Source: Gammaproteobacteria bacterium (GTDB lineage: Bacteria; Pseudomonadota; Gammaproteobacteria; Eutrophobiales; Eutrophobiaceae). From it: a stretch of DNA of 64,000 nt. How positions within the stretch are numbered: the first letter of the stretch is position 1; each line of letters starts with the position of its first letter. The stretch is taken from positions 2,480,091 through 2,544,090 of the forward strand of contig OZ242169.1 of NCBI GenBank assembly GCA_965205405.1, written 5' to 3'. The position numbers and the translations under genes were made by a program. This document shows positions 8,741 to 60,707 of this stretch, piece by piece. The notes under the pieces were generated by a model, which saw only the letters and a program-made list of their open reading frames with translations, did no database searches and was not told the origin of the DNA.

Positions 8741-8823
8741 ATATTTGGGGTCAGAGTAAAAATACGCAGCAATGGACCAGCAGCGCCTGTGAGTGTTTGT
8801 ATTTTTACTCTGACCCCAAATAT
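8741..8823. repeat. Family-A hairpin repeat copy 1: 25-bp perfect terminal inverted repeats ATATTTGGGGTCAGAGTAAAAATAC / GTATTTTTACTCTGACCCCAAATAT around a 33-bp unique spacer
   Basis: Seen directly in the sequence. The arms are exact reverse complements. The same arms recur at 26300, 50809 and 60594 with different spacers. Confidence 0.85.
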
Positions 8824-9003
8824 CCGGACGATGATCTTATCTCCTGACCTGTCAGATCCAACCCCGCTCTTAAAAAGTGGATTACCTTTGAGGGGCAGAT
8901 CAAATGTCTTGGCCATCTTTATCACCTATAATAATAATCGCCTATTTGAGCTGTTGGGTTTTAGCACAGTAAGCGTGAATAATCCCACCGGATAGAGCCA
9001 GAA

Positions 9004-10494
9004 ATGAGCATGCGACCACACCAGTTAATGTGGAAACAATTGATACAGCTGGACGCATCTGCTCAGGAAAGTCTGCAGATGCAATTGAGAAGAGGACTGA
9101 CCAACGCTATTCTCTATGGTCAGGTCAGTATTGATTTACCGCTACCCTCCAGCCGTGATCTGGCGCAGCAATTGCAAATATCCCGAAATACCATTGTTCT
9201 TGCGTATCAACGACTGGTGGATGAGGGCTATCTCATCAGTCGAGAAAGACAGGGCTATTTTGTTAACCCGGCAATCCTCGAATCCAGACCGCAGTACCAG
9301 GAGAACGAAGACACAGTAGGCTCAAGTACACCGGAATGGCAGGCCAGATTAAACTTCGACCTCTCAATACAACGTAATATACAAAAACCGAGTCATTGGC
9401 AAAAATTTGAATACCCTTTTGTCTATGGCCAATCCGACCCTTCATTGTTCCCTATCGCCGATTGGCGCGAGTGTGTGCGTCAATCACAAAGTGTCGCGGT
9501 GATAACCGCAGGCAGTTTTGACTATATTGATCAGGATGATGAGGTATTGGTAGAGGAATTGTGCATTCGAGTCCTGCCGCGGCGAGGCATTTGGATCAGG
9601 CCGGAACAATTACTGGTTACCATTGGCGCGCAGAACGCCCTGTCGATAATCTCGCAATTACTCTTTAACGAAGACTCTGTTATCGGCATTGAAAACCCTG
9701 GATATCCTGACGCCCGCAATTTATTTTCATTACGCACCAAGCAATTGGTGTTACTTGAAGTTGATGAGTATGGCTTGATCATTAACGACAAACTCAATCA
9801 ATGTGATTATGTGTACGTCACCCCTAGTCACCAGTCCCCTACCACAACCACTCTCCCCGTGGGAAGACGTAAGGAATTGCTGGATAAAGCCAGACTGCAC
9901 GACTTCATTATCATAGAAGATGATTATGAATCCGAAGCTAACTATATCCATCAGGCAATCCCGGCTTTGAAGAGTTCGGACACCAATAATCGAGTGATTT
10001 ATTGTGGTAGTTTATCGAAATCGCTCGCTCCTGGTCTCCGTCTCGGTTATCTGGTTGCCGATGTTGAACTGCTCACGCAAGCACGCATATTACGGCGCTT
10101 ATTATTACGCCATCCCCCTGCCCTAATTCAGAGAACAGTCGCATTGTTCCTTCAACTCGGTCATTACGACTCACATATCAATCGGTTTAACCAGGTGCTG
10201 AAAAACCGTTGGAAGATAATGGCCGAGGCACTTGAGCAATACATGCCCGGTTCGACCAACATTCCGGAATTTGGTGGCACAGCCTTCTGGATACAGGGAA
10301 CGGAGGGAAGTAACTCTCGCCAGCTCACAGAAGAGTGCGCCAAGCAGAGTATCCTCATAGAGCCGGGAGATGTCCATTTCGGACAGGATAATCCTCCCAA
10401 TAACTTTTTTCGATTAGGCTTCTCCTCCATAAGTGAAGATCGGATCCAAAAGGGTATCGCACATATCAAGGACATCCTTAATAGTCTAATTTAG
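9004..10494 (+). CDS. MocR-subfamily GntR regulator (N-terminal wHTH plus C-terminal PLP aminotransferase-like domain); candidate TauR-like regulator of the adjacent taurine module
   Basis: 496 aa. N-terminal GntR HTH (SSRDLAQQLQISRNTIVLAYQRLVDEGYLISRERQGYFV). C-terminal class-I aminotransferase fold with an SLSK PLP-lysine motif (YCGSLSKSLAPGLRLGY). Confidence 0.8.
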   Translation: MSMRPHQLMWKQLIQLDASAQESLQMQLRRGLTNAILYGQVSIDLPLPSSRDLAQQLQISRNTIVLAYQRLVDEGYLISRERQGYFVNPAILESRPQYQENEDTVGSSTPEWQARLNFDLSIQRNIQKPSHWQKFEYPFVYGQSDPSLFPIADWRECVRQSQSVAVITAGSFDYIDQDDEVLVEELCIRVLPRRGIWIRPEQLLVTIGAQNALSIISQLLFNEDSVIGIENPGYPDARNLFSLRTKQLVLLEVDEYGLIINDKLNQCDYVYVTPSHQSPTTTTLPVGRRKELLDKARLHDFIIIEDDYESEANYIHQAIPALKSSDTNNRVIYCGSLSKSLAPGLRLGYLVADVELLTQARILRRLLLRHPPALIQRTVALFLQLGHYDSHINRFNQVLKNRWKIMAEALEQYMPGSTNIPEFGGTAFWIQGTEGSNSRQLTEECAKQSILIEPGDVHFGQDNPPNNFFRLGFSSISEDRIQKGIAHIKDILNSLI

Positions 10495-10613
10495 GTAATC
10501 AATAGCTGTGTAGTCGAATAGATATTCAGAAACTCCAGTTAACTCCTCCCCCACTTCACCAATCACGCTGTTATGGTTCCAAAGGTAACTCCATGGTTGC
10601 GTAGATAACGTCG

Positions 10614-11693
10614 CTAAAATGAATTTTCTTTCACATAATCATCAAGGTTCTGCAGATATTTATGTCTATCCTCTTCCGAAATCCAGGCTGATTCAAATGC
10701 ATTACTAATAAGCTGGACGACTTCATCTATTGAATAGTCACCGTGTCGCTGTACTTCCGATAGCGTATTATTTAGATAGCGACTGGCGAACTCCGACGGA
10801 TCGTCTGTGTTCACTGAAACCAGTAGGTTCAAATCAAGCATCTCACGAATACCCTCAACTCGACGAGGTCCTGGATCTGAGGGCCTCCAGGTTGGGCACA
10901 TAGTCAGTGGTATCCGGTTATCCTGGACCGCTGAAATTAATTTCTGATCATCCAGTACTTGCAACCCGTGATCAATTCGTTCTACTTTCAGGATGTCTAG
11001 ACATTGGCGAATGTGATTTATGGAATTAGGTTGATCACAATCACAATGTGATGTCAAATGATAGCCTTCCTCTCGCGCTCGCTTGAATACTTTTTCAAAC
11101 TTTAGTGGGAAGTCGTGTACTTCATAGTTATCCAGACCGACAGCGTTTATTTCAGGCTTAAAGGGTTTAGCAATATCCAGTATTTCCATACTTGATTCTG
11201 CACTATGATCACGCTGAAAATTCATTATCCAATTGGATTCTATTCCGAAATCTCGCTTACCGTCTTGCCTTCCACGATTGAGACCAGTAAAAAAATTCCT
11301 AAATTCAACGCCACGACTGGTATGTGCTTGCGTATCAAACATCATTTCTACGTAAACAATATTTTCTTTTCGGCATTTTTCAAGAAAAGCATAGGTGAGT
11401 TCATAGAAATCTTGTTCTTTCTGCAATACACGTATGCAATTTTCGTGATATTTTAAGAAATTATCTAATGGCGGCTCCCCATAATCTTGAGCTGCCCATA
11501 CTTCTTTTTCATTCTGAAAAGGAATATCAATTTTATTACGTTCTGCAAACTCCAGTAGCATAGAGGGTTCTACACATCCTTCAATATGAACATGTAATTC
11601 CGCCTTTGGCATACTCGCAATAAATTCAGCAAAGTTTTTTATCATGTTTATCTTTTCCAATACCACTTCATTTCCGTGACAGATTGTGAGCAC
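10614..11693 (-). CDS. Adenosine/adenine-deaminase-family metal-dependent aminohydrolase (true start possibly the internal Met at 11645)
   Basis: HVHIEG metal-binding motif near the N-terminus (KAELHVHIEGCVEP) and an SVNTDDP motif near the C-terminus, as in adenosine deaminases. It overlaps the pta stop codon. Confidence 0.7.
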   Translation of the reverse strand: MLTICHGNEVVLEKINMIKNFAEFIASMPKAELHVHIEGCVEPSMLLEFAERNKIDIPFQNEKEVWAAQDYGEPPLDNFLKYHENCIRVLQKEQDFYELTYAFLEKCRKENIVYVEMMFDTQAHTSRGVEFRNFFTGLNRGRQDGKRDFGIESNWIMNFQRDHSAESSMEILDIAKPFKPEINAVGLDNYEVHDFPLKFEKVFKRAREEGYHLTSHCDCDQPNSINHIRQCLDILKVERIDHGLQVLDDQKLISAVQDNRIPLTMCPTWRPSDPGPRRVEGIREMLDLNLLVSVNTDDPSEFASRYLNNTLSEVQRHGDYSIDEVVQLISNAFESAWISEEDRHKYLQNLDDYVKENSF

Positions 11694-12646
11694 TAAGCCA
11701 GAAAGGCCGTGATAACAGCTATATCAAGAATGTCTTTAGCCGTACACCCTCTGGACAAGCCCATCCAGGGTTTCGCCAAGCCCTGTAATAATGGTCCGAG
11801 GGCCGTTGCACCGCCGATCCTTTCTGTTATTTTATATGCGATATTGCCGGAAGATAGATCTGGGAAAATAAATACATTTGCCTTACCTGCAACCGCCGAT
11901 TCTTCCAATTTCAACTTCGCAACTTCTGGATCAAATGCAGCGTCAAACTGAAGTTCGCCATCAATATGTAAGGCAGGTCGTCGTTGCCTGGCTATATCCA
12001 GGGCTTTTCTCACTTTAACCACATGAGCATGTTCAGTACTGCCCTTAGTAGAAAAAGACAATAAGGCAACTCGTGCCTCTTCCCCCGTAAGCACTAAATG
12101 GTTTTCGGCACTATCAATGGCAATGCAAGCCAACTGCTCGGCATCGGGATTTGGTACTACCCCGCAATCTGCGTAGGTCATAACACGATCCTTTAGTTCC
12201 ATTAGAAACATACTGGAAAGTAAATTTTTCCCGTCCGCCAGGCCTATTCCTCGAAGACCAGCCCGGACCACGTCGGCTGTAGTAGCAACCGAACCGGCAA
12301 CGCCTCCATCTGCATAACCAATATTTACCAATACGGCGGCAAGTAATAATGGATTACTGTTCAATTCAAGTGCCGCTTGCTCGACTTTAATACCTTTCGT
12401 GGCTTGTAGTTGAGAATACACATCTATACAACGTACATACCAATCATCTCTATCAGTGCGATGCTCAAATACTTCAATATCATGCATTTTCACTCGCCCT
12501 TGCCTGATAAATAATGCAGTACCGTAATTACCCCTATTGAACTCCAGGGCTGCATGCATGACGCGAGGATCTTCCGATTCTGGAAAAATAATACGCTTAG
12601 GTGCTTGCCTGGCTATTTTCCGGATAAACTCAAGTACCTGTGCCAT
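11693..12646 (-). CDS. pta: Phosphate acetyltransferase (short PTA_PTB-type)
   Basis: 317 aa. PTA/PTB family pattern (RIIFPESEDPRVMHAALE ... GYADGGVAGSVATTADVVRAGL). Confidence 0.75.
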   Translation of the reverse strand: MAQVLEFIRKIARQAPKRIIFPESEDPRVMHAALEFNRGNYGTALFIRQGRVKMHDIEVFEHRTDRDDWYVRCIDVYSQLQATKGIKVEQAALELNSNPLLLAAVLVNIGYADGGVAGSVATTADVVRAGLRGIGLADGKNLLSSMFLMELKDRVMTYADCGVVPNPDAEQLACIAIDSAENHLVLTGEEARVALLSFSTKGSTEHAHVVKVRKALDIARQRRPALHIDGELQFDAAFDPEVAKLKLEESAVAGKANVFIFPDLSSGNIAYKITERIGGATALGPLLQGLAKPWMGLSRGCTAKDILDIAVITAFLA

Positions 12647-12692
12647 ACATACCCTAGCCCCGTACTAAATGTTGGCCCATACGTTCTCGTTG

Positions 12693-14123
12693 TCAAGAAT
12701 AACTATCCAATACCTCTCGGAATATTTCACGCATGTCATTGATTTCCGATTTCTCAATAACAAAGGGTGGCGCTACTAATGCCGCATCTCCCGTCGTTTT
12801 GACATGCACGCCAGCATCAAACAGTCTCTTTTGAAAGTTGTGACCACGCCTTCCAGGAGTACCATCAACTGCAACATCGAATGCGGCCAACATGCCATAT
12901 CCTCGAATATCCGTCACCATCGGATGGTCTTGTAGAGAGAAAATTGCATCCAGAAAATAATCAGATAAATCTTTGGCTCTCTGAAAAAGATTTTCCTTTT
13001 CAAAAATATCCAGCGTTGCAAGCCCGGCAGCACAGGCTGCAGGATGACCTGAATACGTATATCCATGAAACATCTCAACAACATTTTCAGAGCAACTATT
13101 GATAACAGTATCATAGATATTGTCATGTACTGCCACACCAGACATTGGCTGGGCAGCATTGGTCATTGCTTTTGCCATGGTAATAATATCGGGAGTGACA
13201 CCAAATTCTTGTGATGCAAATGCAGAGCCGGTTCGACCGAAACCGGTAATTACCTCATCGAAAACTAATATAATATCGTGTTCGTCACAGATTTCACGTA
13301 AGCGCTGCAAATATCCTTCTGGTGGAACGATCACACCCGTCGAACCAGCAATCGGCTCAACGAAACAAGCAGAGATTCGATTCGCACCATACAATTGAAC
13401 AGCGCGTAACAGATCATTAGCCAACTCTTCTCCACCTTCCTTGGGTTGACCCTTAATGAACTTCTGATCAGGTGATAATGTGCTTCGCATATGTGTCACG
13501 TTTGGTAATACGCCAGTGAAGGCCTCCCTGTTTTTGGCAATACCGCTCAGCGCTGTACCACCTATATTGACACCGTGATAAGCACGTTCGCGCGAAACAA
13601 ATATATTTCTCTGTGCCTCTCCTCTGGCAAAGTTATACGCCATGACAATTTTCATTGCTGTATCAACAGCTTCTGATCCAGAATTTCCATAGAAAATATG
13701 GTTAAGTGGATTCGGAGTTAATGCAGCAATACGCTTGGCCAACTCAAATGACTTTGGCTGTCCCCGTAAAAAGGGTGCCGTAAAATCCAACTGCCGGAGT
13801 TGTTCATGTACTGCAGCCGTAATTTCAGGACGGCAATGGCCACATGCGACGGCAAACAAACCTGAAGATCCATCAATCAGCCTTTCACCTTTATTGTTCC
13901 AAAGATATATTCCCTCAGCCCCGGTAATTATCCTGGGATCCTGCTTGAAGGATTTGTTATCAGTAAAGGGCATCCAGTGATTTTCCAGATCGGTACTGGA
14001 TATATCGATTGGTTGTACCTGGCCATTATTTTCTGGCATATTGAGCAGGATGTCTGCGACTGTATTAACCATTTTCTTCACCTGTATAAGCTGTTCAAAA
14101 TAATCAATAATGCTATTTGCCAT
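12693..14123 (-). CDS. Class-III (omega) aminotransferase, candidate taurine-pyruvate aminotransferase (Tpa-like)
   Basis: About 476 aa from MANSIIDYF. Class-III fold pattern (HWMPF..., GHCRPEITAAV, PLP-Lys region DEVITGFGRTG). Sits between pta and the Xsc-like gene. Confidence 0.75.
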   Translation of the reverse strand: MANSIIDYFEQLIQVKKMVNTVADILLNMPENNGQVQPIDISSTDLENHWMPFTDNKSFKQDPRIITGAEGIYLWNNKGERLIDGSSGLFAVACGHCRPEITAAVHEQLRQLDFTAPFLRGQPKSFELAKRIAALTPNPLNHIFYGNSGSEAVDTAMKIVMAYNFARGEAQRNIFVSRERAYHGVNIGGTALSGIAKNREAFTGVLPNVTHMRSTLSPDQKFIKGQPKEGGEELANDLLRAVQLYGANRISACFVEPIAGSTGVIVPPEGYLQRLREICDEHDIILVFDEVITGFGRTGSAFASQEFGVTPDIITMAKAMTNAAQPMSGVAVHDNIYDTVINSCSENVVEMFHGYTYSGHPAACAAGLATLDIFEKENLFQRAKDLSDYFLDAIFSLQDHPMVTDIRGYGMLAAFDVAVDGTPGRRGHNFQKRLFDAGVHVKTTGDAALVAPPFVIEKSEINDMREIFREVLDSYS

Positions 14124-14165
14124 CAGTATGTTACGTATGTATTTGACACTCACATAGAGCCAGAA

Positions 14166-14316
14166 ATGAGTAAGCGATCGCACCAGCTGATGTGGGAGCA
14201 GTATCTCGAGAAATACGATAGTACTTACTTATCAATGGTTTGTTGATGAAGGTTATCTGGTTAGTAGAGAGAGACAAGGCTACTTTGTTAGACCGACAAT
14301 ATTAAAGACTCGCCCG
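14166..14316 (+). pseudogene. Decayed fragment of a second MocR/TauR-like regulator gene, divergent from the aminotransferase
   Basis: DNA similarity to the intact gene at 9004. The segment 14152-14225 matches 8990-9063, including the shared upstream AGAGCCAGAAATGAG and MS.R.HQLMW. The segment 14238-14316 matches about 9205-9290 (VDEGYLISRERQGYFV region). The intervening ~150 bp is deleted and the frame is broken. Confidence 0.5.
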
Positions 14317-14524
14317 CTACTATATACCGGAATTCCTTAATTACTGGCTCTGAATACACTTCGAAACTGGCTCTATTTTCAAGTGCAATCCTTCTCTAAA
14401 GTTACCGACTTGTTAATATGAATATGCAAATGATTCGATTGGAATGAATAGTGCCCAGAATACACAGTTAGCGTTCTCGCTTGTATTCTGAACACATTCC
14501 CCTACCTTTCAGGAGTTAAAGATT

Positions 14525-16279
14525 ATGACACGAATGACGCCCAGTGAAGCGTTTGTAGAAACCATGGTTGCCAATGGGGTAACCAAAATTTTTGGAATCA
14601 TGGGATCGGCCTTTATGGATGCTATGGATATCTTTGAGCCTGCCGGGATTGATTTTGTGCCCGTTGTACATGAACAAGGGGCTGCCCACATGGCTGATGG
14701 CTATTCCCGTGTCAGTGGCAAACATGGCGTGTGTATCGGCCAGAACGGACCCGGGATAAGTAACTGTGTCACGGCCATCGCAGCCGCCTATTGGGCTCAT
14801 TCACCGGTGGTTATAATCACCCCTGAAACCGGTACCATGGGGATTGGCCTGGGAGGGTTCCAGGAAGCCAACCAGTTACCCATGTTTCAAGAGTTCACCA
14901 AGTACCAGGGACATGTCTGCAATCCTAATCGTATGGCGGAAATTACCGGCCGATGCTTTGAGCGAGCCCTGTCGGAGTTGGGCCCTACTCAGTTGAACAT
15001 ACCACGTGATTATTTCTACGGTGATATCGATGTGGAAATCCCCCAACCCCGGACTCTGGATAGGGGACCAGGGGGTGAAAAAAGTCTGAATGACGCTGCA
15101 GAATTACTGGCAAAAGCGAAATTCCCCGTCATCATTTCCGGCGGTGGCGTGGTTATGGCTGATGCTGTTCAAGAGTGTAAAGCCCTGGCTGAGCGCCTGG
15201 GTGCACCGGTGGTAAATAGCTATTTACATAACGACTCCTTCCCCGCCGGTCATCCGCTTTGGTGTGGCCCCCTGGGTTATCAGGGCTCCAAAGCCGGTAT
15301 GAAACTCATCAGTAGAGCCGACGTGGTATTGGCGCTTGGTACACGGCTTGGTCCATTTGGTACTCTGGCCCAGTATGGGATGGATTATTGGCCAGAGGAC
15401 GCCAGGATCATCCAGGTCGATGCCGATCATAAAATGCTCGGCCTGGTAAAAGAAATTTCAGTGGGGATCTGTGGTGACGCAAAAGCCGCAGTAATCGCCA
15501 TACACTCTCGTCTGAATGATGGCTCTCTGGCTTGTGATGCGAATAAGGAACAACGTGCAACTGAGATAAGTCAGGAGAAACAGGCGTGGGAAAAAGAACT
15601 TGATGAATGGATTCATGAGAAGGACGACTTCAGCCTCAAAATGATTGAAGAAGCCGTAGGTAAATTGCTCCATCCTCGCCAGGTATTACGAGAACTGGAA
15701 ACAGCCATGCCTGCAGATGTTATGGTATCGACCGATATCGGTAACATTTGTTCTGTATCCAATAGCTATTTACGATTTGAACGGCCACGCAGTATGTTTG
15801 CAGCCATGAGTTTCGGTAACTGCGGTTATGCATTTCCGACCATTATTGGTGCTAAATTGGCTGCCATGGATCGTCCGGCTGTCTCATATGTAGGCGATGG
15901 TGCCTGGGGTATGAGTATGGGCGAAACTATGACCTGCGTACGTGAAGGTATTCCTGTTACGTCGGTCGTCTTCCACAATAAACAATGGGGGGCGGAGAAG
16001 AAAAACCAGGTGGATTTTTACGGCCGCCGTTTTGTGGCCGGCGAACTGGACAATCAGAGTTTTGCTGAAATTGGACGGGCCATGGGTGCGGAAGGTGTCG
16101 TTGTTGACAAGTTGGAAGATGTCGGTCCTGCCTTCACCAATGCAATCAATTTACAGATGAATGATGGTATAACAACAGTACTTGAAATCATGTGTACCCG
16201 CGAACTGGGTGACCCCTTCCGCCGTGATGCATTGTCAACACCGGTACGTTATCTTGAAAAATACAAAGATTATGTTTAG
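14525..16279 (+). CDS. xsc: ThDP-dependent enzyme of the acetolactate-synthase superfamily; best fit is sulfoacetaldehyde acetyltransferase (Xsc)
   Basis: 584 aa. The N-terminus (MTRMTPSEAFVETMVANGVTKIFGIMGSAFMDAMD ... IGQNGPGISN ... GGFQE ... NIPRD) matches my recollection of Xsc. Pta and a class-III aminotransferase are adjacent, as in known xsc-pta/tpa loci. Confidence 0.65.
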   Translation: MTRMTPSEAFVETMVANGVTKIFGIMGSAFMDAMDIFEPAGIDFVPVVHEQGAAHMADGYSRVSGKHGVCIGQNGPGISNCVTAIAAAYWAHSPVVIITPETGTMGIGLGGFQEANQLPMFQEFTKYQGHVCNPNRMAEITGRCFERALSELGPTQLNIPRDYFYGDIDVEIPQPRTLDRGPGGEKSLNDAAELLAKAKFPVIISGGGVVMADAVQECKALAERLGAPVVNSYLHNDSFPAGHPLWCGPLGYQGSKAGMKLISRADVVLALGTRLGPFGTLAQYGMDYWPEDARIIQVDADHKMLGLVKEISVGICGDAKAAVIAIHSRLNDGSLACDANKEQRATEISQEKQAWEKELDEWIHEKDDFSLKMIEEAVGKLLHPRQVLRELETAMPADVMVSTDIGNICSVSNSYLRFERPRSMFAAMSFGNCGYAFPTIIGAKLAAMDRPAVSYVGDGAWGMSMGETMTCVREGIPVTSVVFHNKQWGAEKKNQVDFYGRRFVAGELDNQSFAEIGRAMGAEGVVVDKLEDVGPAFTNAINLQMNDGITTVLEIMCTRELGDPFRRDALSTPVRYLEKYKDYV

Positions 16280-17307
16280 GCTCCCAGGCCCAATTTACCC
16301 AGTGCCTTTTTATAAGCCACACTACAAACATCCGCATGGGTGTGCCGCTCATTTCTTATATTCAGAAGATATTCCTTTGGGTGAAGCTTCTCAATAATGG
16401 CTTTATCTTCTTTATTGACTTGCAACATGTAATCAATGTCGGCACGCGGGTCGTTATGCTGTGTGACGGCAATCTGAAAAAGCGTACATGAATAAGCAGA
16501 ATTGGGGGTTGCAACGTCATGCACTGAATATCTAACGCTACCATCCTGCTCCTCATCAATCAGTAATGAGCAAAAAGGTAATGTCAGTTCGGATATTAGA
16601 GTGAAATCTCTGGCAACTCCATGTACTGCTGAATGGGTTGTTTTAACACGCCTGAGCACATGGGCCACCGTTTGGTCGACTTCAAACTCCGGGACAGAGG
16701 AGGCTTCCGGATTTCCAAACGATTCTCTATGGACAATTGAAAGATGTGCAGGATCGTTAAAATTCTCCACATGTCTCGCAGCTGATGCTTCCCAGACCTC
16801 TGAATTAATACTCACTTTGGTATCCGGGTGATTCATAATTCCTTCGTTTTCAAGAATCGGCCATTCTGGTAGAGGCAAAATTGGATCAGGCTTCAGGCAA
16901 ACCCAGAGTAAACCGAAACGCTCCTCACTCCGGTATGTGATAAGGTTGAAACTACTGGCGATAGGCGCCGTCTGATCTTGCCGTGCAGGAATTTTGCTAC
17001 AGGTCCCATCTGCTTCAAATTCCAGCCCATGATAAGGGCAGACAATTTTGTTTTCTTCCACACATCCCATGCTGAGCGGCGCCCCTCGATGGGGACAAAT
17101 ATCCCGAGCCACGGTAATTCCTTTTCTGGTACGATAAATTACCAGTGGGATATCCATTAATATAAAGCGAACCGGTTTGTCTTTAATATCATCAATTAAG
17201 GCCACAGGATGACACATTGCTGCCAGAATTAGCCAGTCACTTCTTGTAAACTCAGTTTGATCGGGAAAGTCCGAATCATCTTTAACAAAATTTTTCGGTA
17301 GAAACAT
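16276..17307 (-). CDS. Rieske [2Fe-2S] non-heme-iron oxygenase alpha subunit, short VanA/TsaM-like type (paralog 1)
   Basis: 343 aa. Rieske motif CPHRGAPLS...CPYHG. No beta subunit or reductase gene adjacent. Confidence 0.75.
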   Translation of the reverse strand: MFLPKNFVKDDSDFPDQTEFTRSDWLILAAMCHPVALIDDIKDKPVRFILMDIPLVIYRTRKGITVARDICPHRGAPLSMGCVEENKIVCPYHGLEFEADGTCSKIPARQDQTAPIASSFNLITYRSEERFGLLWVCLKPDPILPLPEWPILENEGIMNHPDTKVSINSEVWEASAARHVENFNDPAHLSIVHRESFGNPEASSVPEFEVDQTVAHVLRRVKTTHSAVHGVARDFTLISELTLPFCSLLIDEEQDGSVRYSVHDVATPNSAYSCTLFQIAVTQHNDPRADIDYMLQVNKEDKAIIEKLHPKEYLLNIRNERHTHADVCSVAYKKALGKLGLGA

Positions 17308-17337
17308 AACTTAATTCCTTAAATTCTATAAGCAAAT

Positions 17338-18663
17338 CTACGAATGCCTGATTTCTACTATCATATTCGCAAAAGGTTTTAGTCCTGAATAAAAAATTAC
17401 GATGGCAATGGGTATAAATATCGCACCAAACAAGGACAAAGAGTAATGAACCTGAAGTGTGTTTTGAAACACAGTATCAGTAAAAAAAGCTACCAGGAAT
17501 GGGCCCACACCCGCCCCGATCAGTACCAAAATAAAAAGATAAATCGCCAGTATCTGCCCACGAAATTCATTGGGTGTAATCTGAGTGATACATGCCATAC
17601 CAACACCAATATTGGCTCCCAAAAAAAACATTGTCGGACCCAGTAAACACAATACAGTTATAGAATTTGGTGCCAGTGGGGTCACAATAAAAATCAGTAA
17701 TCCAAGACAAGCATAGACGGACACCCTTAGATATGCATCAGCAAAACCTCTTTTTATAAGCCAATCTGCCCATATACCGCCACACATTGTGCCGCCGCCA
17801 CCAAAGAATAAAACAACCAGACCAAATGCTATTCCTACCTCTCCAGGTGTCCAGGAAAAAATACGAATAAATAGTGTCGGGGTCCAGGCTAATAGACCAT
17901 ATCCCAACATCGCGGTAGTCGAATAACCAAAAATGATGGTTAAGTAAACTCGCAGGTGTGATGCCATAAAACGAAAGGTTTCTCTCAATGGTAATAATAT
18001 TGGAGCACCTTCTCCTTTATTTAGCCTATCGTGTCGCAAAGGTTCTTTGACAGACAGCATTACCAGGGCGGCAACCAATACGCCGGGCAAACCAACGATT
18101 ATTAAAGTCGTTTGCCAGGGTTGCAGTACACCTACAAGAGGTAATTCCAGCGCCGTGCTTTTGGCAACGGCCTGTACAACAAGACCACCCAGGATAAAAG
18201 ATAGTCCCCCTCCGACGTATGGACCCATCGCCAGAAGGCTGATAGGTTTACTGCGTTTATCCCGTGGAAAATAGTCAGACACCATTGAATACCCACAAGG
18301 TGACAAGCAAGCCTCACCTACCCCCACGCCAATACGGGCCAGGAAAAACATCCAGAAATTTTTTGCAAGACCGCAACAGGCCGTCATCAGACTCCAGGCC
18401 GTAATACCTATTGCAATAATGGTGCGGCGATTTTTGGAATCAGCCAGGCGTCCAATCGGAATTCCCATAAACGCATAGAAAATAGCAAAGGCAAAGCCGT
18501 GTAAAATACTTATTTGTGTATCCGTAATACTGAGGTCTGCTTTTATGGGTTCTATGAGTAAACTAATAATCTGCCGGTCAATAAACGAGACAACATTGGC
18601 AACCATTAAGACAGCGGCAACATACCAGGCGTATATCGGATTTGGGTAGTTATCGTTCGCCAT
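17338..18663 (-). CDS. MFS transporter
   Basis: About 441 aa from the internal Met (MANDNYPN...), 12 predicted TM segments, MFS-type G-rich loop motifs. Confidence 0.75.
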   Translation of the reverse strand: MANDNYPNPIYAWYVAAVLMVANVVSFIDRQIISLLIEPIKADLSITDTQISILHGFAFAIFYAFMGIPIGRLADSKNRRTIIAIGITAWSLMTACCGLAKNFWMFFLARIGVGVGEACLSPCGYSMVSDYFPRDKRSKPISLLAMGPYVGGGLSFILGGLVVQAVAKSTALELPLVGVLQPWQTTLIIVGLPGVLVAALVMLSVKEPLRHDRLNKGEGAPILLPLRETFRFMASHLRVYLTIIFGYSTTAMLGYGLLAWTPTLFIRIFSWTPGEVGIAFGLVVLFFGGGGTMCGGIWADWLIKRGFADAYLRVSVYACLGLLIFIVTPLAPNSITVLCLLGPTMFFLGANIGVGMACITQITPNEFRGQILAIYLFILVLIGAGVGPFLVAFFTDTVFQNTLQVHYSLSLFGAIFIPIAIVIFYSGLKPFANMIVEIRHS

Positions 18664-18794
18664 ATTTGAGACAGTTGCCAATTCGTTCACAATAAACTGC
18701 GGAAAAAATAATAATGTTAGACCTGGATAAAACGCATAATAGAAAAAAAGGGTGGACAATCCACCCTATTTATCACTTAGTCGAATGCATACAA

Positions 18795-21074
18795 TCAGAA
18801 TCGATAGGAAAGCGTACCCCCAAATTGACGCGGAGGCCCACCAGGCAGCACCATATGTTCGGCAATAAATGTAAATCCGTCATTTATCCATTCTTCATCT
18901 GCAAGATTCTTAACCCATAGTCTTACATCCCAGTTATCGTCAGAACCAGTGTAACCAATGCTTGCATTGAGTATCCAAAAAGCATCTTGTGATTCGTAAT
19001 CCGTATTTGTATCAGTAAAAAATTGTTTATCTCTCCAGTGCGGATTGAGTGTAAATGCCAGTTGACCACCCTGTGCCATCGGTACTGTATAGGTTATAAA
19101 AGTATTTGATGTCAGTGCCGGCGTTTTCGCGGTCGTATTACCTGTGACATCACCACCCCCAAACCCAAGAGCTAAACTGGTACTTACAAATTCAGATTCT
19201 GTCCAGGCGAGTGCTGAATAGATATTCAACTGTTCCATTGGTTGCCAATCGACCTCAACTTCAGCGCCATATCCCTCGACATCGCCAAAGTTGGCCAATA
19301 ACGATATACTACCCAGAACGCCACGAGCACCAGGAATCTCAACGAATCCGATTTTGTCTGTATAATCGTAGTAGTATCCTGACGCATTCACGCGCAAGGT
19401 GTCATCCAGAAAATCACCTTTAAAACCAGCTTCGAAATTACTCAAGAATTCAGGGTCGGTAACTTCAAATTCGTCGTTAGCCAACGCACCGCCGTTGAAA
19501 TCTCCACCCCTGAAGCTTCGAGACCACGTAAACCACAGATTTACATCATCATTCAAAGCGTATTGAAGTGAAATTCTGGCACTGGGTTCAAACCACTCTT
19601 CTTTTTGATTATCTTCGTTTGCCAAAATCGTGTGTGGCAAACTAAACCACAGTTGTTTATCAATTAACGTATTATCGAACGTGGGGTTGGGGACGATGCT
19701 ACCGGCACGTATCGCACCTACTCGTTCATCCCACGTTAACCTCAGGCCCGCCGTCGCCGTAAAACGATCGTTAAAGTCATATGAAACTTCGCCGAAAATT
19801 GCAAAATTTTGTTGCTCTATAATATTCAGTCGTCCTGCACTCGTACCACCAAATGCGAGGATGTAGTTAGAACGAAAGTATGTGAGTTCATCGTCATAAT
19901 AAAAGCCGCCCAGGACCCAGTTCCATGGCCCATCACTGTTGGATGCAAATCTAATTTCCGTACTCCATTGTTCATGTTCGTCGTCAAAGTTCGCATTTAA
20001 TACTCCTTGTGGAGAGCCATCAGTTTCATTCAGTTCTTGGCGGACATTAGACTGGAAGGCGGTAATAATCGTAGTTGTAAAGCTATCAAATTCGTAATCC
20101 ACGAATAACGCGGTTTGAAACAATTCCATTTTCTGAAACCCATCGGCACCAGAATTAATTGTATAGGGATCAGCATCAGCCACACCACCTAACAGGTTCA
20201 CACAGCTCGTACCCGGGCGCCCCCTCAACGGATCAGAACATGAAAATCCGAAATCAAATGGGAATGCGCCAAGACCCAGCGCCTTTTGTGGAGTATCTTC
20301 TCCATCAAGTTCACTGTATGTAATTGCTAATCTGGTGTTTAAACGGTCGGTTGGCTGCCAGGATATCTGCCCCCTTAGGGCGCCCCACTCGTGGCCACCA
20401 AGATTACTATCAGCAGGCGATGCAGGATTACCATTATCATACAAGCCGTCGAAGCTGCGATAGGTAGCGCTTAGTCGTGCAGCAATGTTTTCACTGATCG
20501 AGAAACCCACTGCACCTTCAAAATCATACTCATCTCCTTCGGCCGCCGTAACATCTACGTAACCATTGGTTTCCCCGCCTATCTCGGGTTTAACCGACAC
20601 GTAGTTAATCAGACCGCCTGTAGTATTTCTTCCCCACAATGTTCCTTGTGGGCCTTTCAGCACTTCAACCCGGTCCAAGTCGAATACCAATCCAGCAGTA
20701 CCGTAATTAGAACCAAAAACGACACCATCTTGATAAATCGCCGTCGCGTTTCCGGCGCTGACCTGGAAATCATCAACACCTACACCACGCAAACTATATT
20801 CTGTCTTGCCGAAACCGGTACCTGCAGTGGTTAAACCAGGTATCGAATCCAAGAGTTCTCTGCCATTCGCAATCGCACGCTTTTTGATGGTATCACCAGT
20901 AATCGCTGTCACAGCAATAGGCACCTCTTGAAGACTTTGCTCTCGCTTTTGCGCTGTTACGATAACTTCTTCTAACACTCCCTGCGCAGAAGCCAGTCCC
21001 GTCCAAAGCATCAAGATACCAAGTACGCCGAATAAGCTAATAATTTCTTTGAATCTGATCAAAATGAACTGCAT
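18795..21074 (-). CDS. TonB-dependent receptor
   Basis: Start at the ATG at 21074 preceded by GGGGAG. Signal peptide, plug (EEVIVTAQKREQSLQEVPIAV), C-terminal ...TLSYRF barrel terminus. Confidence 0.85.
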   Translation of the reverse strand: MQFILIRFKEIISLFGVLGILMLWTGLASAQGVLEEVIVTAQKREQSLQEVPIAVTAITGDTIKKRAIANGRELLDSIPGLTTAGTGFGKTEYSLRGVGVDDFQVSAGNATAIYQDGVVFGSNYGTAGLVFDLDRVEVLKGPQGTLWGRNTTGGLINYVSVKPEIGGETNGYVDVTAAEGDEYDFEGAVGFSISENIAARLSATYRSFDGLYDNGNPASPADSNLGGHEWGALRGQISWQPTDRLNTRLAITYSELDGEDTPQKALGLGAFPFDFGFSCSDPLRGRPGTSCVNLLGGVADADPYTINSGADGFQKMELFQTALFVDYEFDSFTTTIITAFQSNVRQELNETDGSPQGVLNANFDDEHEQWSTEIRFASNSDGPWNWVLGGFYYDDELTYFRSNYILAFGGTSAGRLNIIEQQNFAIFGEVSYDFNDRFTATAGLRLTWDERVGAIRAGSIVPNPTFDNTLIDKQLWFSLPHTILANEDNQKEEWFEPSARISLQYALNDDVNLWFTWSRSFRGGDFNGGALANDEFEVTDPEFLSNFEAGFKGDFLDDTLRVNASGYYYDYTDKIGFVEIPGARGVLGSISLLANFGDVEGYGAEVEVDWQPMEQLNIYSALAWTESEFVSTSLALGFGGGDVTGNTTAKTPALTSNTFITYTVPMAQGGQLAFTLNPHWRDKQFFTDTNTDYESQDAFWILNASIGYTGSDDNWDVRLWVKNLADEEWINDGFTFIAEHMVLPGGPPRQFGGTLSYRF

Positions 21075-21316
21075 CTTTGTCTCCCCTCTTGGCTTGGCAA
21101 TAACTAGTTTTGAGATCGTTGCAACCTCACAACGTACAATTTTTCGAACCATAAAATATAATGCAGCTAAAGCCATCTAAGTAGTACCAAACAACCTTTA
21201 ACCTTAGTACCACGAATTATTTCCCACATTTTTAGTGGATGCCTCTCTGTTTCAGGTCAAAAACTAAGCTATAAGGCGTTGATATTAATAGTAATAATTT
21301 ATCAGTTCATCCTAAT

Positions 21317-22399
21317 TTATGCGACCTGCTTGTTCGCTGGATCTTTTATATCTTTCCTTATGCATTTAAGTAACTCTTCAGGACTTTTTTCTGCCGCCGC
21401 TGCCAGCTGCCTTAACCATTTACGATAGTGGATCGATATTTTATCCGACGGCACGGAGATCTCTTGAGATGGGCCTGGGATTTCCTGGGGATACTGGCTT
21501 TCGATAACAGGTTTGTCCTCGGCCAGAACTATCTCCTGGAATGCCAAATGCGGTGGATCCGGTTTGTCCATATCATGGTCTCGACAGGTAAATGAAAAAA
21601 TACGGCATGTTTTGGCATCGATTGGTGCTGCACACATCCACAGGATCGCATTGTTCCCCTTTCCCGCTTTGGTATTCAGTAAAAATTCAACGTTGACCGT
21701 AAACGGCATGGTGATGTGATAAACAGTCTTTCCCATTAAGGCAACATCCGGTACAGGCATTTCTTCCGGTGCCTCAAAGTGAAAAACCAGTTGTCCGTTT
21801 ACCCTGTCAATATAGGGCGGTGTTACATCCGTTATGTTGGGGTCAAACAAGGTATTAGGATGAATATAGGGAAAATGCGCCAGGTCAACATAATTTTCCA
21901 GTCGTCTAGCTGCCGATGTCTGCCAGTTGTAAGGAACTATTGGGACTGCTTTGAATTTCTCGTCGGTATATCCGGGACACAGAGGGATCTGGGTCTCTGT
22001 ACTTGAATCTAATCGTACCCATATCAAATCATATTTTACTTGTGTTTCATACTGAGGGATTTTAGCCACGGTTGGGATTTCCATGCCTGGGCATGCCGGT
22101 ATATCCACACATCGACCTTGACCATTGTAGGCCCAACCATGATACCGGCATCGCATTTTCCCATTATCGACAAATCCCAGTGCGAGCGAGGCCGAACGAT
22201 GACAACACCTTTCACTCAGCGCAACAATGCCCTCATCCAGTTCGACTATCACCAGGGATTCACCAAGAAGCTTCACTTTAATCGGACCTTTACCACTCGC
22301 ATCTTCGGAGTAAAATTCTTCCAGGGTACAAACTGGAAACCAAAAGTGTCGCCAGGTTGCCTCGCTGATGAAATCTGGATTTATGGTTTGATTACTCAA
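21317..22399 (-). CDS. Rieske [2Fe-2S] non-heme-iron oxygenase alpha subunit (paralog 2, more divergent)
   Basis: 360 aa. Rieske motif CCHRSASLA...CRYHGW. Confidence 0.75.
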   Translation of the reverse strand: MSNQTINPDFISEATWRHFWFPVCTLEEFYSEDASGKGPIKVKLLGESLVIVELDEGIVALSERCCHRSASLALGFVDNGKMRCRYHGWAYNGQGRCVDIPACPGMEIPTVAKIPQYETQVKYDLIWVRLDSSTETQIPLCPGYTDEKFKAVPIVPYNWQTSAARRLENYVDLAHFPYIHPNTLFDPNITDVTPPYIDRVNGQLVFHFEAPEEMPVPDVALMGKTVYHITMPFTVNVEFLLNTKAGKGNNAILWMCAAPIDAKTCRIFSFTCRDHDMDKPDPPHLAFQEIVLAEDKPVIESQYPQEIPGPSQEISVPSDKISIHYRKWLRQLAAAAEKSPEELLKCIRKDIKDPANKQVA

Positions 22400-22660
22400 A
22401 ATAGTTTCTCCTTAAAGATGTTCGAATTTGTCACTCACTAGATGTAGATCCAATTCATGAGAACCGTTATACCCAATATTCATAAGAAAATATTCATTAT
22501 TTCAGTTGCTTACGAGGGAGACGTAAATGATGATATTCCGCTCCTTCAAAGACAGTTGTACAGTGCATCAATGTGGCGCCTGCATTCGGACTAAAATTAA
22601 TATAGTATTTTTCTTAAACTTGATTAATAAATCCTTTTCTATTACCAAATTGGAACAATT

Positions 22661-23716: not shown

Positions 23717-23748
23717 CAGTAGACTTGTTCGTTATTGAGTGGTTTAAC

Positions 23749-24915: not shown

Positions 24916-24939
24916 TAGTGATGAATCCTTTTAAATCAT

Positions 24940-26283: not shown

Positions 26284-26299
26284 TAGATTGTTAGTTTTT

Positions 26300-26382
26300 A
26301 TACTTGGGGTCAGAGTAAAAATACAGTCACTCGTGAACGACCCCGGCATGCTGTTGAGTATTTTTACTCTGACCCCAAATAT
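26300..26382. repeat. Family-A hairpin repeat copy 2 (one arm mismatch), in the xseA/guaB divergent promoter region
   Basis: Arms ATACTTGGGGTCAGAGTAAAAATAC / GTATTTTTACTCTGACCCCAAATAT around a 33-bp unique spacer. Confidence 0.8.
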
Positions 26383-26396: not shown

Positions 26397-26421
26397 GGGG
26401 ACAGATTTTAAATCTGTCCCC
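26397..26421. repeat. Family-B 25-bp palindrome GGGGACAGATTT-T-AAATCTGTCCCC, 14 bp downstream of family-A copy 2
   Basis: Perfect 12-bp arms. The same palindrome (centre G) occurs at 62116-62140. A half-site AAATCTGTCCCC lies at 50906-50917 next to family-A copy 3. Confidence 0.6.
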
Positions 26422-26477
26422 TGAGGAATCCAGTCGATATTTATTGTTTACCACTTCGCTAAGGATCATTATAATAA

Positions 26478-50808: not shown

Positions 50809-50893
50809 CTTCCGTTGGAAATTTGGGGTCAGAGTAAAAATATGGTCAACTTGGTAGGTGTTGCCGGTTTATTCGTGAGTATTTTTACTCTGA
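50809..50893. repeat. Family-A hairpin repeat copy 3, between the convergent PQQ-dehydrogenase and MoaD-like genes
   Basis: Arms AAATTTGGGGTCAGAGTAAAAATAT / GTATTTTTACTCTGACCCCAAATAT around a 35-bp unique spacer. Followed by the family-B half-site AAATCTGTCCCC at 50906-50917. Confidence 0.8.
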
Positions 50894-50925
50894 CCCCAAA
50901 TATCCAAATCTGTCCCCGCCCGGCA

Positions 50926-55936: not shown

Positions 55937-56048
55937 GTAAATACTCCTCCAGAGTTATTTGACATGATTGAATGACTATGCCGTTTTGTCAAGAAATCAA
56001 TGGGGTCAGACTCGATTGATTTAGTTCATTAGATTCCTGCTTTCGCAT

Positions 56049-56087
56049 AATTAATGGGGTAATTAATGGGGTCTGACCCCATTAATT
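56049..56087. promoter_or_regulatory. Tandem AATTAATGGGGT repeat plus 27-bp palindrome AATTAATGGGGTC-T-GACCCCATTAATT upstream of the nicX-like operon; candidate operator
   Basis: Seen in the sequence. 56049-56060 and 56061-56072 are direct repeats. 56061-56087 is a perfect 13-bp-arm palindrome. A related AATGGGGTCAGAC lies at 55998-56010. Confidence 0.4.
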
Positions 56088-56152
56088 TCTGAATTACTAC
56101 CTTCGGCTTTCGCAGGACTAAGAGGGAAAATACAAACTGTCCCCTGTTATGC

Positions 56153-59047: not shown

Positions 59048-59218
59048 TATTTTCTTCTCAGAATTTTAAAAGGGGTAATAGCAACTATGGAAAGTGAAAA
59101 AATATATTTATATATTGAATGTCTGTCAAGTGTTATTTGGTTACATAGTGGGGAAATATTCTACGAATATTATAAACACTAACTTTTTAGTCGGCGTAAC
59201 AGAATGTATGCCGTTTTT

Positions 59219-60544
59219 CTATAAGAACCTGCGTCGTAAGTCTAGCAACAGGCCCAGGAAAATCAAGCCGAATTCAAGCGGACGAACCCACAGTGGATGA
59301 GCGAACGGTTCCAGGTTGAAGTCGCCCAGGTTGAGCCCCGTGATATAGGAAAGGAGCAGCGCCCAGGAGGCTGTCCATGCCCAGAAACTGGGATAAACAA
59401 CGGCGAAGGGCAATAACCAGAGCGCATACCAGGGATTGATCACCGGAGCTGCGAACAGGAACAGACCGTAAACCCAGTCCCCCCGGGGGATCTCTCCCGG
59501 CGTTTCCCGGCGGTAGCGCAGCCAGTAGGCGCTGCCGAGCGCCAGCAGTCCACTACCCAATAACAGTTTTGCATCAGGATCGGAAAGCCATTGTGTCAGT
59601 ATACCGTACAGGGCAGAATTGAATTCCCAGCCCTGGGCAAACACGGCCAGGGAAGTTGTATCCGAACTTCCCTGAAGCAGGAACGGCAGATACAGCAGGG
59701 CGAGGAGGGCGCCAAAGGTAAGCCAGACGCGCAGGCTTGTACGCGCCAGGATAAACGGAACCAACAGCAGCGCCAGCATCTTGGTCCCGACTGCGAGGGC
59801 CAGGCAGGCTGCGGCGCTGCAGGCATATTCGCGCCGGCGCAGCAGAATGGCTGCAACGAGCAGGCAGGCGCCCATGCCGTCCGGATGGGCGGTAAAGGCG
59901 ATTTCCTTGATGACCAGCGGGCACCAGGCGTATAGCAGCACGTATCCCGCAGGAGCGGCCCACAGCAACAGCCGGATGAGCAGGATGTCGACACCGATGA
60001 ACAGCAGTTGCAGCGGGACCAGGCTGCCGGCTTTCAGGAAGTAGCTCAGCAGGAAGGCGTATTGGCTGGTAGGCCCGTAGATAGTGGACAAATCCGGGTA
60101 GTTGACTTGGTCCAGGATGCGTTGAAATTCGATCGGTACCCCGGGATCGCTGAAGGAATCCGCCGGCGCCCAACCGTAGGGCGTGCCGGTTTCGGCGAAA
60201 CGGTAACCATCCCACAGATAGCGGAACCAGTCGTCTTCGAACAGGGGTATGCCGAACAGCCCGCAGCAGCGAAATAATACCGCCCAGATGAGCAGGCGTC
60301 CTACGGGTAGAGTCCCGGGCTGATGCCGGAAACAGGAAAACACGACAAGCAGCGGCAGCGACACCCAGCCCAGCAACAGGAAAAAGCCCGGTAATTCCGG
60401 CGCCCAGGTCGTTCCGCGTGAATACCAGGCGAGTGCGGCATAGCCTGTCAGGCACACTAACCCGCAGACGTCGACGACCCTGTTGCGCCCCTGGTTGGTG
60501 AGTAAAATGTGAGCCTGCATATAATTTCCGGCGTACTTTTTCAC
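59219..60544 (-). CDS. Polytopic membrane protein with GT-C-like (PMT/ArnT/DUF2029-like) glycosyltransferase features
   Basis: 441 aa with more than 10 TM segments. The first periplasmic-loop acidic motif (FEDDWFRYLWDG) is reminiscent of GT-C enzymes. The overlapping antisense ORF 59574-60551 is a high-GC shadow. Confidence 0.5.
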   Translation of the reverse strand: MKKYAGNYMQAHILLTNQGRNRVVDVCGLVCLTGYAALAWYSRGTTWAPELPGFFLLLGWVSLPLLVVFSCFRHQPGTLPVGRLLIWAVLFRCCGLFGIPLFEDDWFRYLWDGYRFAETGTPYGWAPADSFSDPGVPIEFQRILDQVNYPDLSTIYGPTSQYAFLLSYFLKAGSLVPLQLLFIGVDILLIRLLLWAAPAGYVLLYAWCPLVIKEIAFTAHPDGMGACLLVAAILLRRREYACSAAACLALAVGTKMLALLLVPFILARTSLRVWLTFGALLALLYLPFLLQGSSDTTSLAVFAQGWEFNSALYGILTQWLSDPDAKLLLGSGLLALGSAYWLRYRRETPGEIPRGDWVYGLFLFAAPVINPWYALWLLPFAVVYPSFWAWTASWALLLSYITGLNLGDFNLEPFAHPLWVRPLEFGLIFLGLLLDLRRRFL

Positions 60545-60593
60545 TTGCCATTCTACATGGCAGAATTTATCCTGTTTACCTGAATAACCATCG

Positions 60594-60707
60594 ATATTTG
60601 GGGTCAGAGTAAAAATACTTCGATATTTGGGGTCAGAGTAAAAATACGTCTAATCCGGTAGATTGTGTTGCTGTACTATTAAGTATTTTTACTCTGACCC
60701 CAAATAT
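60594..60707. repeat. Family-A hairpin repeat copy 4, with a tandemly duplicated left arm (29-bp period)
   Basis: Left arms at 60594-60618 and 60623-60647, 35-bp unique spacer, right arm at 60683-60707. Flanked on both sides (3 bp away) by the direct repeat TGAATAACCA (60581-60590 and 60711-60720). Confidence 0.85.

Follow-up and report, generated by a model that had tools for sequence, protein, structure and literature searches.

REPIN-like hairpin repeats in a gammaproteobacterial genome and their probable RAYT transposase partner

The stretch analysed here comprises 64,000 nucleotides of a Gammaproteobacteria bacterium of the family Eutrophobiaceae (assembly GCA_965205405.1, contig OZ242169.1, positions 2,480,091 to 2,544,090) and is called the window below. 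Between its genes it carries four inverted arm pairs and one extra left arm, which make up four copies of an 83-85 bp hairpin element, referred to as family A. The same arm brackets a gene for an HUH/Y1 transposase of about 235 amino acids in relatives of this genome, which is the decisive evidence for a link to the RAYTs (REP-associated tyrosine transposases, REP standing for repetitive extragenic palindromic sequences). Our preferred reading, to which we assign a probability of roughly 0.8, is that the elements are REPIN-like doublets, i.e. both ends of a RAYT unit without its gene, whose arms are recognised by a RAYT encoded elsewhere in the genome. A preliminary description of the window had sensed a REP-like or miniature inverted-repeat transposable element (MITE)-like mobile hairpin; the repeat family is real and is now tied to a transposase clade.

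Four hairpin elements between chromosomal genes

The neighbours of the four copies are ordinary chromosomal genes. Copy 1 begins 27 nt past the stop codon of lipA (lipoyl synthase) and is followed by a co-directional GntR-type gene (a GntR/aminotransferase regulator). Copy 2 separates the divergent genes xseA (exonuclease VII large subunit) and guaB (IMP dehydrogenase), copy 3 lies between the convergent genes for GSDH (a sorbosone-dehydrogenase-like protein) and for molybdopterin oxidoreductase subunits, and copy 4 between an unknown gene and a divergent gene for a FAD-binding subunit. All four are thus intergenic, two between divergent, one between convergent and one between co-directional genes, as had been described. 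The frame listed for xseA (24940-26349) extends into copy 2, which is an artefact of the repeat. The copies and the features that belong to them are the following.

8741-8823: copy 1; left arm 8741-8765, centre 8766-8798 (33 nt), right arm 8799-8823
26300-26382: copy 2; left arm 26300-26324 (ATACTT variant), centre 26325-26357, right arm 26358-26382
50819-50903: copy 3; left arm 50819-50843 (AAATTT...AAATAT variant), centre 50844-50878 (35 nt), right arm 50879-50903
60623-60707: complete doublet of copy 4; left arm 60623-60647, centre 60648-60682 (35 nt), right arm 60683-60707
60591-60619, plus strand: extra left arm of copy 4, a 29-nt tandem duplicate TCGATATTTGGGGTCAGAGTAAAAATACT
60581-60590, plus strand: 10-bp direct repeat TGAATAACCA, left member, 3 bp outside copy 4
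60711-60720, plus strand: 10-bp direct repeat TGAATAACCA, right member, 3 bp outside copy 4

The window was searched with the arm 21-mer TTTGGGGTCAGAGTAAAAATA, allowing up to three mismatches. Nine matches had at most one mismatch, against 0.00 expected from 100 shuffles, and arms of different copies agree at 22-25 of 25 positions, which confirms that four copies share near-identical 25-bp arms. The preliminary description had placed copies 1, 2 and 4 correctly (8741-8823, 26300-26382 and 60594-60707), while copy 3, which it put at 50809-50893, lies 10 bp further to the right. It had also recognised the tandem duplicate of the left arm that opens the whole span of copy 4 (60594-60618 within 60594-60707). 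Comparable arm duplications occur in four loci retrieved from other genomes (retrieved loci carry L numbers; here L026, L007, L096 and L035), and partial or tandem ones are frequent in other genomes.

Each arm consists of an outer segment of 6-7 nt made of A and T only and a 19-nt core, GGGGTCAGAGTAAAAATAC. The outer positions vary by lineage (ATATTT, AAATTT, ATAAAT, AAAAAA, ATAATT) with arm-to-arm complementarity kept: the outer six positions are 77-90% complementary between arms, chance level is reached from position 9-10 outwards, and swaps of T:A for A:T exceed all 500 shuffles at positions 2, 3 and 5. In copy 1, the perfect palindrome reaches 8739-8825 (27-nt arms, 100% complementary), and in copy 3 an imperfect one reaches 50815-50907. 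Folding of each copy, which the preliminary description had put forward as a check, predicted RNA stems of 25-28 bp at -39 to -52 kcal/mol (z -6.8 to -9.9), and folding as single-stranded DNA gave -25 to -29 kcal/mol (z about -9.7).

The centres had been described as completely different from copy to copy, which turned out not to be the case. Those of the window match weakly, with global alignment scores of 11.5-18 over 33-35 nt when each match counts 1 and gaps are penalised. With their arms, copies 3 and 4 reach 78% identity over 90 nt. Across about ten genomes, 44 centres of the long form can be aligned to an oriented consensus, CAGTCA..TTGGCAGG.G.TG CTGGTTTATTGTTGAG, of 33-38 nt, found in either orientation relative to the flanks. 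Judged from these alignments, the arms are near-invariant and the centres are diverging but homologous. A total of 77 inverted arm pairs was counted among the fetched loci. The arm-to-arm spacing is bimodal, with a short form of 7-8 nt and a long form of 33-38 nt (peak at 37) to which the window copies belong; the short form is a perfect palindrome of 50-56 bp (...AAATACAGTACTGTATTT...), and intermediates exist in which the palindrome extends further inwards. A reading of the centre as an IHF site, by analogy with the RIP and BIME of E. coli, was dropped, as no convincing match to WATCAANNNNTTR was seen by eye.

Very stable predicted hairpins and a loose centre consensus are also what a family of small structured RNA genes or riboregulators with a conserved stem and a variable loop would offer. 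We consider this the least credible of all explanations discussed here: a scan of the whole window gave no Rfam match at gathering thresholds, the elements have no consistent promoter or terminator, no orientation bias and no covarying substructure in the centre, and the short form does without the centre altogether.

The arm family in other genomes and its RAYT gene

GTDB genomes, one for each species (596 Gb), were scanned for exact matches to the 18-mer GGGGTCAGAGTAAAAATA, which located the arm at at least 106 loci, almost all of them in Gammaproteobacteria and mostly as inverted pairs. The carriers include Pseudohongiellaceae, Haliea, Spongiibacter, Woeseiaceae, Lysobacterales and Thiogranum, as well as many other metagenome-assembled genomes (MAGs), and several arm pairs per 8-kb block are common among the loci listed. 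In OZ252091, a complete MAG and the closest complete relative, at least 65 arms were found in 27 blocks. Only 2 of 72 elements lie inside a long open reading frame (ORF). A few single matches in unrelated phyla are in keeping with a rough chance estimate for 596 Gb, three single matches in viral contigs are in line with the two to three estimated roughly by chance, and the plasmid collection gave no match. A text search of the literature for the arm and for the sister-clade repeat described below returned unrelated PCR primers only. The arm family is previously undescribed in the searchable literature and in Rfam, and it is common to many uncultured Gammaproteobacteria. An abundant, unannotated intergenic repeat of marine, sponge, soil and freshwater Gammaproteobacteria is thereby placed in the REPIN-RAYT class with a likely enzyme named. 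For annotation, the spurious peptides IFTLTPNI and LGVRVKI can be masked and ORF starts inside arms, as in the xseA case, avoided.

The partner gene does not stand out among the neighbours of the elements. All-against-all clustering of 3,619 ORFs from the 106 loci and the window (about 850 kb of flanks) showed no enriched gene family; the neighbour clusters seen as candidates, none enriched, were response regulators, a methyltransferase, a coiled-coil protein and similar. A Y1 motif expression combined with tblastn recovered five scattered RAYT-like genes or fragments in the element loci (L050, L054, L074, L078 and L106), none of which is bracketed by family-A arms. In L078, GGGGACAGACCACGTTT lies about 100 nt upstream of the RAYT-like gene start, and this was the clue to a comparison of flanks. 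A composite scan of metagenomes, in which a family-A arm had to be followed 101-161 nt on by degenerate codons for QRGNN (the RAYT N-terminus), found an arm together with a RAYT gene in at least 120 contigs.

In these genes, which we call RAYT-A, 65-128 nt separate the start of the arm from the ATG. The search pattern did not include the inverse arm, whose presence is thus an independent check; it is found at or just past the stop codon in 41 of the 60 full-length genes with enough downstream sequence, and in eight of the 60, all among the 41, the stop is a TGA within the right arm, CTCTGACCCC. The window's exact 19-nt core plus AGT occurs upstream of a RAYT gene in five distinct contigs (five rather than six, since L206 repeats L192). 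Three of them have a full-length gene, and the mirror sequence ...ACTGTATTTTTACTCTGACCCC with an A/T hexamer follows downstream in L193 and L211, and with one mismatch in L224. A further case came from a protein search: P0125, the RAYT of the complete Pseudohongiella genome OZ244938.1, has ATAAATGGGGTCAGAGTAAAAATAC 99 nt upstream (L236, 3902) and an inverse arm with one mismatch 10 nt past its stop (4695), and the same genome also carries dispersed elements (L084, L096). The preliminary description had proposed a search for an IS200/IS605-type partner whose ends match the arms, and the arms are indeed the ends of an IS200-like Y1 (RAYT) unit, in relatives. It had also held that a RAYT partner would lessen the novelty of the repeat, and by that measure the novelty is reduced.

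By translation, RAYT-A is an HUH/Y1 transposase of about 235 amino acids with the family pattern MARLPRLCLPGIPQHIIQRGNNRQVCF...HAWVFMTNHVHLL...RYIELNPVRAGMV; the consensus holds HAWVFMTNHVHLL and RYIELNPVRAGMV, an HUH motif is found in 89 of 93 long-enough ORFs, and Y..NP in 76 matches. A representative scores 50 bits against Pfam PF01797 (Y1_Tnp, cutoff 23), and among PDB entries it comes closest to E. coli TnpA-REP (4ER8, E=0.002), with both the HUH and the tyrosine motif inside the alignment. Immediately inward of its left end, the RAYT unit has CAGTAGTTTTGGCAGTG, which resembles by eye the left part of the long-form centre consensus; doublets that arose when the gene unit lost its interior would show such a likeness.

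Several features of the RAYT-A genes were noted in passing. Arm-internal stops are found in L127, L134, L137, L141, L146 and others, where the arm codes for the final residues, ...EFLL, so that gene and mobile unit overlap at their ends. Full-length ORFs account for 64 of 123, and several are cut to 40-130 amino acids. Two starts lie about 1-1.5 kb apart in L155 (2296-3924) and in L157 (2552-3683), with L192/L206 also named. As read from these contigs, RAYT-A is not always single-copy or intact. The RAYTs of REPIN systems are typically present once per genome and passed on vertically, with the repeats dispersed by them in trans.

REPINs are described as inverted REP pairs with several spacings and a poorly conserved spacer, forming an 89-bp hairpin, with RAYTs flanked by the repeats and long persistence (PMC3337134, PMC5581495). 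Family A resembles the REPIN-RAYT systems of P. fluorescens SBW25 and E. coli in its inverted conserved repeats, less conserved spacer and several length classes (PMC3337134, PMC3116915, PMC5581495). The likeness extends to an element of about 89 bp with a long hairpin, extragenic position, tens or more copies per genome, lack of target-site duplication, the repeat flanking an IS200-like HUH/Y1 transposase gene (seen here in relatives, not in the window genome) and persistence of copies at orthologous sites across species. Unlike in those systems, the single family-A repeat is not an imperfect palindrome and has no GTAG, and the stop codon lies inside the right repeat in some RAYT-A genes. RAYT-A also differs from the E. 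coli RAYT in being longer, with a C-terminal extension, and its similarity to TnpA-REP is remote; its score against the REP-transposase model of NCBIfam lies below the cutoff. Published REPs are usually species- or genus-specific, whereas 15-19 nt of the family-A core are identical across several bacterial families, an apparent conservation that is inflated because the relatives were ascertained through an exact 18-mer. REPIN-type populations are thereby extended to a RAYT clade outside the well-studied E. coli and Pseudomonas groups.

Family A shares with IS200/IS605 elements and their gene-less derivatives (e.g. PATEs) a Y1 HUH domain, the absence of target-site duplication, non-autonomous forms that consist of the ends only and, by analogy, a hairpin DNA substrate. 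The ends of IS200/IS605 elements, however, are not mutual inverted repeats and have a subterminal hairpin each, whereas those of family A are inverted repeats of 25-33 bp that pair only with each other. In addition, the called-gene tables of seven loci (L110-L115 and L236) show no TnpB partner gene beside the transposase gene.

Mobility, gene position and competing explanations

Six copies in OZ252091 (L015, L044, L055, L056, L105 and L109) have a near-identical centre, CGGCTAATCTGGTAGAGGACGCGGGCTTATTGTTGAG, the same asymmetric outer arms (GATATAT...AACTATG) and unrelated flanks. They delimit a unit of 89 bp which, on this sequence evidence, was recently copied. The MAG JAPOQU has, at another locus (L019), an element that matches window copy 4 with 93% identity when the centre is counted in. 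Synteny with the window, at about 80-85% identity, is seen in two loci, L089 in OZ252091 and L092 in JAPPLI. Their xseA-guaB gaps hold an element at the same place as window copy 2, with the arms essentially intact in all three genomes; the centre is about 65% identical to that of copy 2 in L089 and reduced to a four-base loop in L092. Upstream of the gene at 7073, the window is empty, L089 has a short variant and L092 a nested composite about 15 bp away, which points to independent insertions into one intergenic region. The copy count and the search for empty sites that had been proposed as checks on mobility thus gave at least 106 loci and a site empty in the window and filled in two relatives. 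The view of family A as a structure-constrained mobile repeat is upheld by the match to the RAYT-unit ends and by this insertion polymorphism, while the free, copy-specific loop that went with it gives way to centres that are diverged homologues.

No target-site duplication accompanies the elements: around 70 of them, the best flanking direct repeats of 2-6 bp follow the distribution of mismatched flank pairs, and the six recently copied members in OZ252091 have no shared or duplicated flank bases. The 10-bp direct repeat at copy 4 is present where it had been reported, but its resemblance to a target-site duplication finds no counterpart in these 70 elements and it is regarded as a one-off, perhaps linked to the arm duplication. 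Readings of the outer hexamer as a TA (IS630-type) or 5-bp (Tn3-type) duplication were rejected, since the hexamer is mirrored rather than directly repeated and some lineages have AAATTT, with no TA.

These data bear on the possibility that family A is a classical MITE, an internally deleted DDE-type insertion sequence moved by cut-and-paste, like Correia/NEMIS or the Tn3-derived TIMEs. Correia/NEMIS, a MITE of Neisseria, has terminal inverted repeats of 25-26 bp, a length of about 100-150 bp in two classes, many intergenic copies and a transcribed hairpin with possible effects on neighbour expression. Family A is similar in its terminal inverted repeats, its size and its nature as an intergenic multi-copy hairpin. 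The 25-bp terminal inverted repeats with a short interior, the two size classes, the direct repeat around copy 4 and the start of the core, GGGGTCAGA, which is like the Tn3 end that we take to be GGGGTCTGA (the ends of Tn3-derived TIMEs presumably beginning with GGGGTC), all speak for such an origin. Nonetheless, we find it hardly credible. The lack of a family-wide target-site duplication argues against a classical DDE-type MITE, the inverted repeat runs 6-7 nt outside the GGGG, which is therefore not the terminus, neither a DDE transposase nor any other gene family is enriched in the flanks of about 850 kb, and the plasmid collection holds no copy. Insertion of Correia elements duplicates a TA target, and no RAYT is known to go with them, whereas the ends of family A match those of a Y1 transposase unit.

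Position relative to genes was assessed with crude ORF-based gene calls, by which 56 elements divide into 32 tandem, 20 convergent and four divergent placements, against 185, 60 and 78 for background intergenic gaps (chi-square p=4e-4). Many elements lie 10-40 bp past a stop codon. Given this bias towards gene 3' ends, the two window copies in divergent promoter regions represent a less usual placement. The orientation of the centre is not biased relative to the direction of transcription (13 vs 7, p=0.26). In Pseudohongiella lineages, the outer hexamers are A6/T6, so that A-tract, stem and T-tract look terminator-like by eye; in the window lineage the stem is followed by AAATAT with no T-run, loops measure 33-35 nt, and a terminator scan that covered copies 3 and 4 (copies 1 and 2 being outside it) flagged neither. 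The 3'-end bias together with the A6/T6 hexamers of some lineages suggests hairpin effects on transcripts that are tolerated or co-opted. None of the window copies has the look of an intrinsic terminator.

An alternative explanation is that family A is a structural element selected by the host, serving as a 3' stabiliser of mRNA, a barrier to RNase III or RNase E or a terminator in one or both directions, with a RAYT link that is historical only. The 3'-end bias, the perfect arms at the xseA-guaB site where flanks and centre diverge, the terminator-like hexamers of Pseudohongiella and a proposed co-option of REPs and REPINs for attenuation (PMC3337134) are consistent with it. We nevertheless judge it improbable as an account of the family. 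The AAATAT after the stem, the unflagged copies 3 and 4, the indifference of the centre to transcription and the placement of two of the four window copies in divergent promoter regions do not fit it, and it leaves near-identical copies at unrelated loci, independent insertions, arm duplications and the exact match to RAYT ends unexplained. It fits as a secondary role rather than as an origin.

The interpretation of family A as REPIN-like doublets would account for these observations as follows. The gene of a RAYT unit would have been deleted down to a remnant of 33-37 nt, other lineages keeping only a loop of 4-8 nt. A single-copy RAYT elsewhere in the window genome, bracketed by GATATTTGGGGTCAGAGTAAAAATAC and its inverse, would recognise the arms, probably on single-stranded DNA and with the arms paired as a hairpin of 25-28 bp. 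It would then cut and rejoin the strand with no target duplication, as in the peel-and-paste transposition of IS200/IS608 and in E. coli TnpA-REP, whose strand chemistry serves as the analogy for this mechanism, and doublets would thereby be dispersed in trans, the agent, by the same analogy, probably being RAYT-A. Conservation of the arms would reflect the need to stay a RAYT substrate, and host-level effects such as 3' mRNA hairpins, or terminator-like ones where A6/T6 hexamers are present, are plausible secondary consequences.

Several points weigh against this interpretation. A tblastn search found no RAYT in the window, nor is there one in the 27 blocks of OZ252091. Against NCBIfam NF047646 (REP-associated tyrosine transposase), RAYT-A reaches 70 bits, under the equivalog cutoff of 80. 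A single arm, with or without adjacent inner sequence, forms no hairpin beyond that of shuffles (-0.4 and -0.5 kcal/mol as single-stranded DNA, z +0.22 and +0.37) and no conserved GTAG/CTAC tetranucleotide stands at the arm, so that the arm lacks the palindromic unit that defines a REP and is what the characterised RAYT of E. coli recognises. Finally, perfect arms at the orthologous xseA-guaB site across species that are about 80-85% identical could also reflect selection at the level of the host.

The elements also mark rearrangement-prone intergenic sites. In L050, a Y1-like gene of 331 amino acids with an apparent frameshift (3836-4827) is accompanied by a duplicate, 397 bp long, that takes in its 3' end and the sequence beyond it (4639-5035 and 7043-7439, 97% identical), which starts exactly at the end of a family-A element and suggests, from its layout, an element-associated rearrangement.

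A shared end motif, neighbouring repeats and local observations

A sister RAYT clade, about 230 amino acids long and 49% identical to RAYT-A, has the ends GGGGACAGACCACG (GGGGACAGACC). They bracket the gene in six organisms (L078, L110-L112, L114 and L115, with L113 repeating the L112 gene), with one copy 70-114 nt before the ATG and the inverse copy directly past the stop. In L111, six same-orientation sister repeats (AAACGTGGTCTGTCCCC plus a T/C-rich tail) occupy 240 bp right after the RAYT stop (3692-3932). The first nine bases, GGGGWCAGA, are common to the sister-clade ends and to family A and two further repeat families of the window, B and C. The window holds 16 matches to this tip against 0.8 expected, and since the sister clade is flanked in the same way, GGGGWCAGA is taken as a shared end motif. 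The members of families B and C are the following.

26397-26421: family-B palindrome GGGGACAGATTTTAAATCTGTCCCC (arm GGGGACAGATTT...), 14 nt past copy 2
50906-50917, minus strand: family-B half unit AAATCTGTCCCC, 2 nt past copy 3
62114-62138: second complete family-B palindrome, flagged on the minus strand by a simple terminator scan
55992-56096: family-C composite palindrome AATGGGGTCAGAC / GGGGTCTGACCCCATTAATT (arm GGGGTCAGAC), with the tip GGGGTCAGA as in family A

Family B occurs 20 times in family-A loci of other genomes. Its adjacency to copies 2 and 3 is as the preliminary description had it, but the composite repeat proposed there finds no firm support, the two families sharing genomes and the tip and also occurring separately; by its sequence, family B is a related but separate repeat family.

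One possibility, which we raise tentatively as an unlikely refinement, is that the RAYT-A group acts on a different substrate geometry, namely plain inverted ends of 25-33 bp in which a hairpin arises only from pairing of left with right. The gene unit may then form a panhandle and the doublet a simple stem-loop, the tip GGGGWCAGA after an A/T-only hexamer may be a common site of cleavage or recognition, and the next 8-10 nt (GTAAAAATAC, CCACGTTT, TTT...) may specify the RAYT paralogue. If true, this geometry would explain why three families with the same tip occur together in the window, why the tip is identical across bacterial families and why the doublet, not the single repeat, is the replicating unit. 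Within the interpretation as REPIN-like doublets more generally, the conservation of ends across families and the tip common to sister clades provide a natural data set on substrate reading by RAYTs and on the co-evolution of repeat and enzyme.

The region upstream of guaB was compared among the window (26440-26483), L089 (about 1085-1135, minus strand) and L092 (about 3740-3770, minus strand). In each of these three related genomes, a perfect TATAAT ends 7-8 nt ahead of the ATG and no Shine-Dalgarno sequence can be made out, an arrangement that suggests a leaderless transcript. In L089 and L092, the right arm of the element (TTTTTACT) stands at -35 distance from this TATAAT; in the window, about 95 bp including the family-B palindrome lie between the right arm of copy 2 and the TATAAT, and TTTACC takes the -35 place. 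At guaB and other housekeeping genes, the elements may add promoter effects or effects of 3'-end hairpins.

Between lipA and xseA, the window holds about 16 kb of genes (8824-24940). The gap measures only 0.4-1.3 kb in the syntenic relatives L092 and L089, where it is filled by a cassette resembling helix-turn-helix and toxin-antitoxin genes. Copy 1 forms the exact left edge of the extra segment, and a short remnant ORF comes next. Within this segment, a 47-nt direct repeat with 83% identity (8992-9038 and 14154-14200) spans, in its first copy, the ribosome-binding region and first codons of the GntR/aminotransferase gene at 9004, and its second copy lies just past the start of an opposite-strand paralogue (12693-14183).

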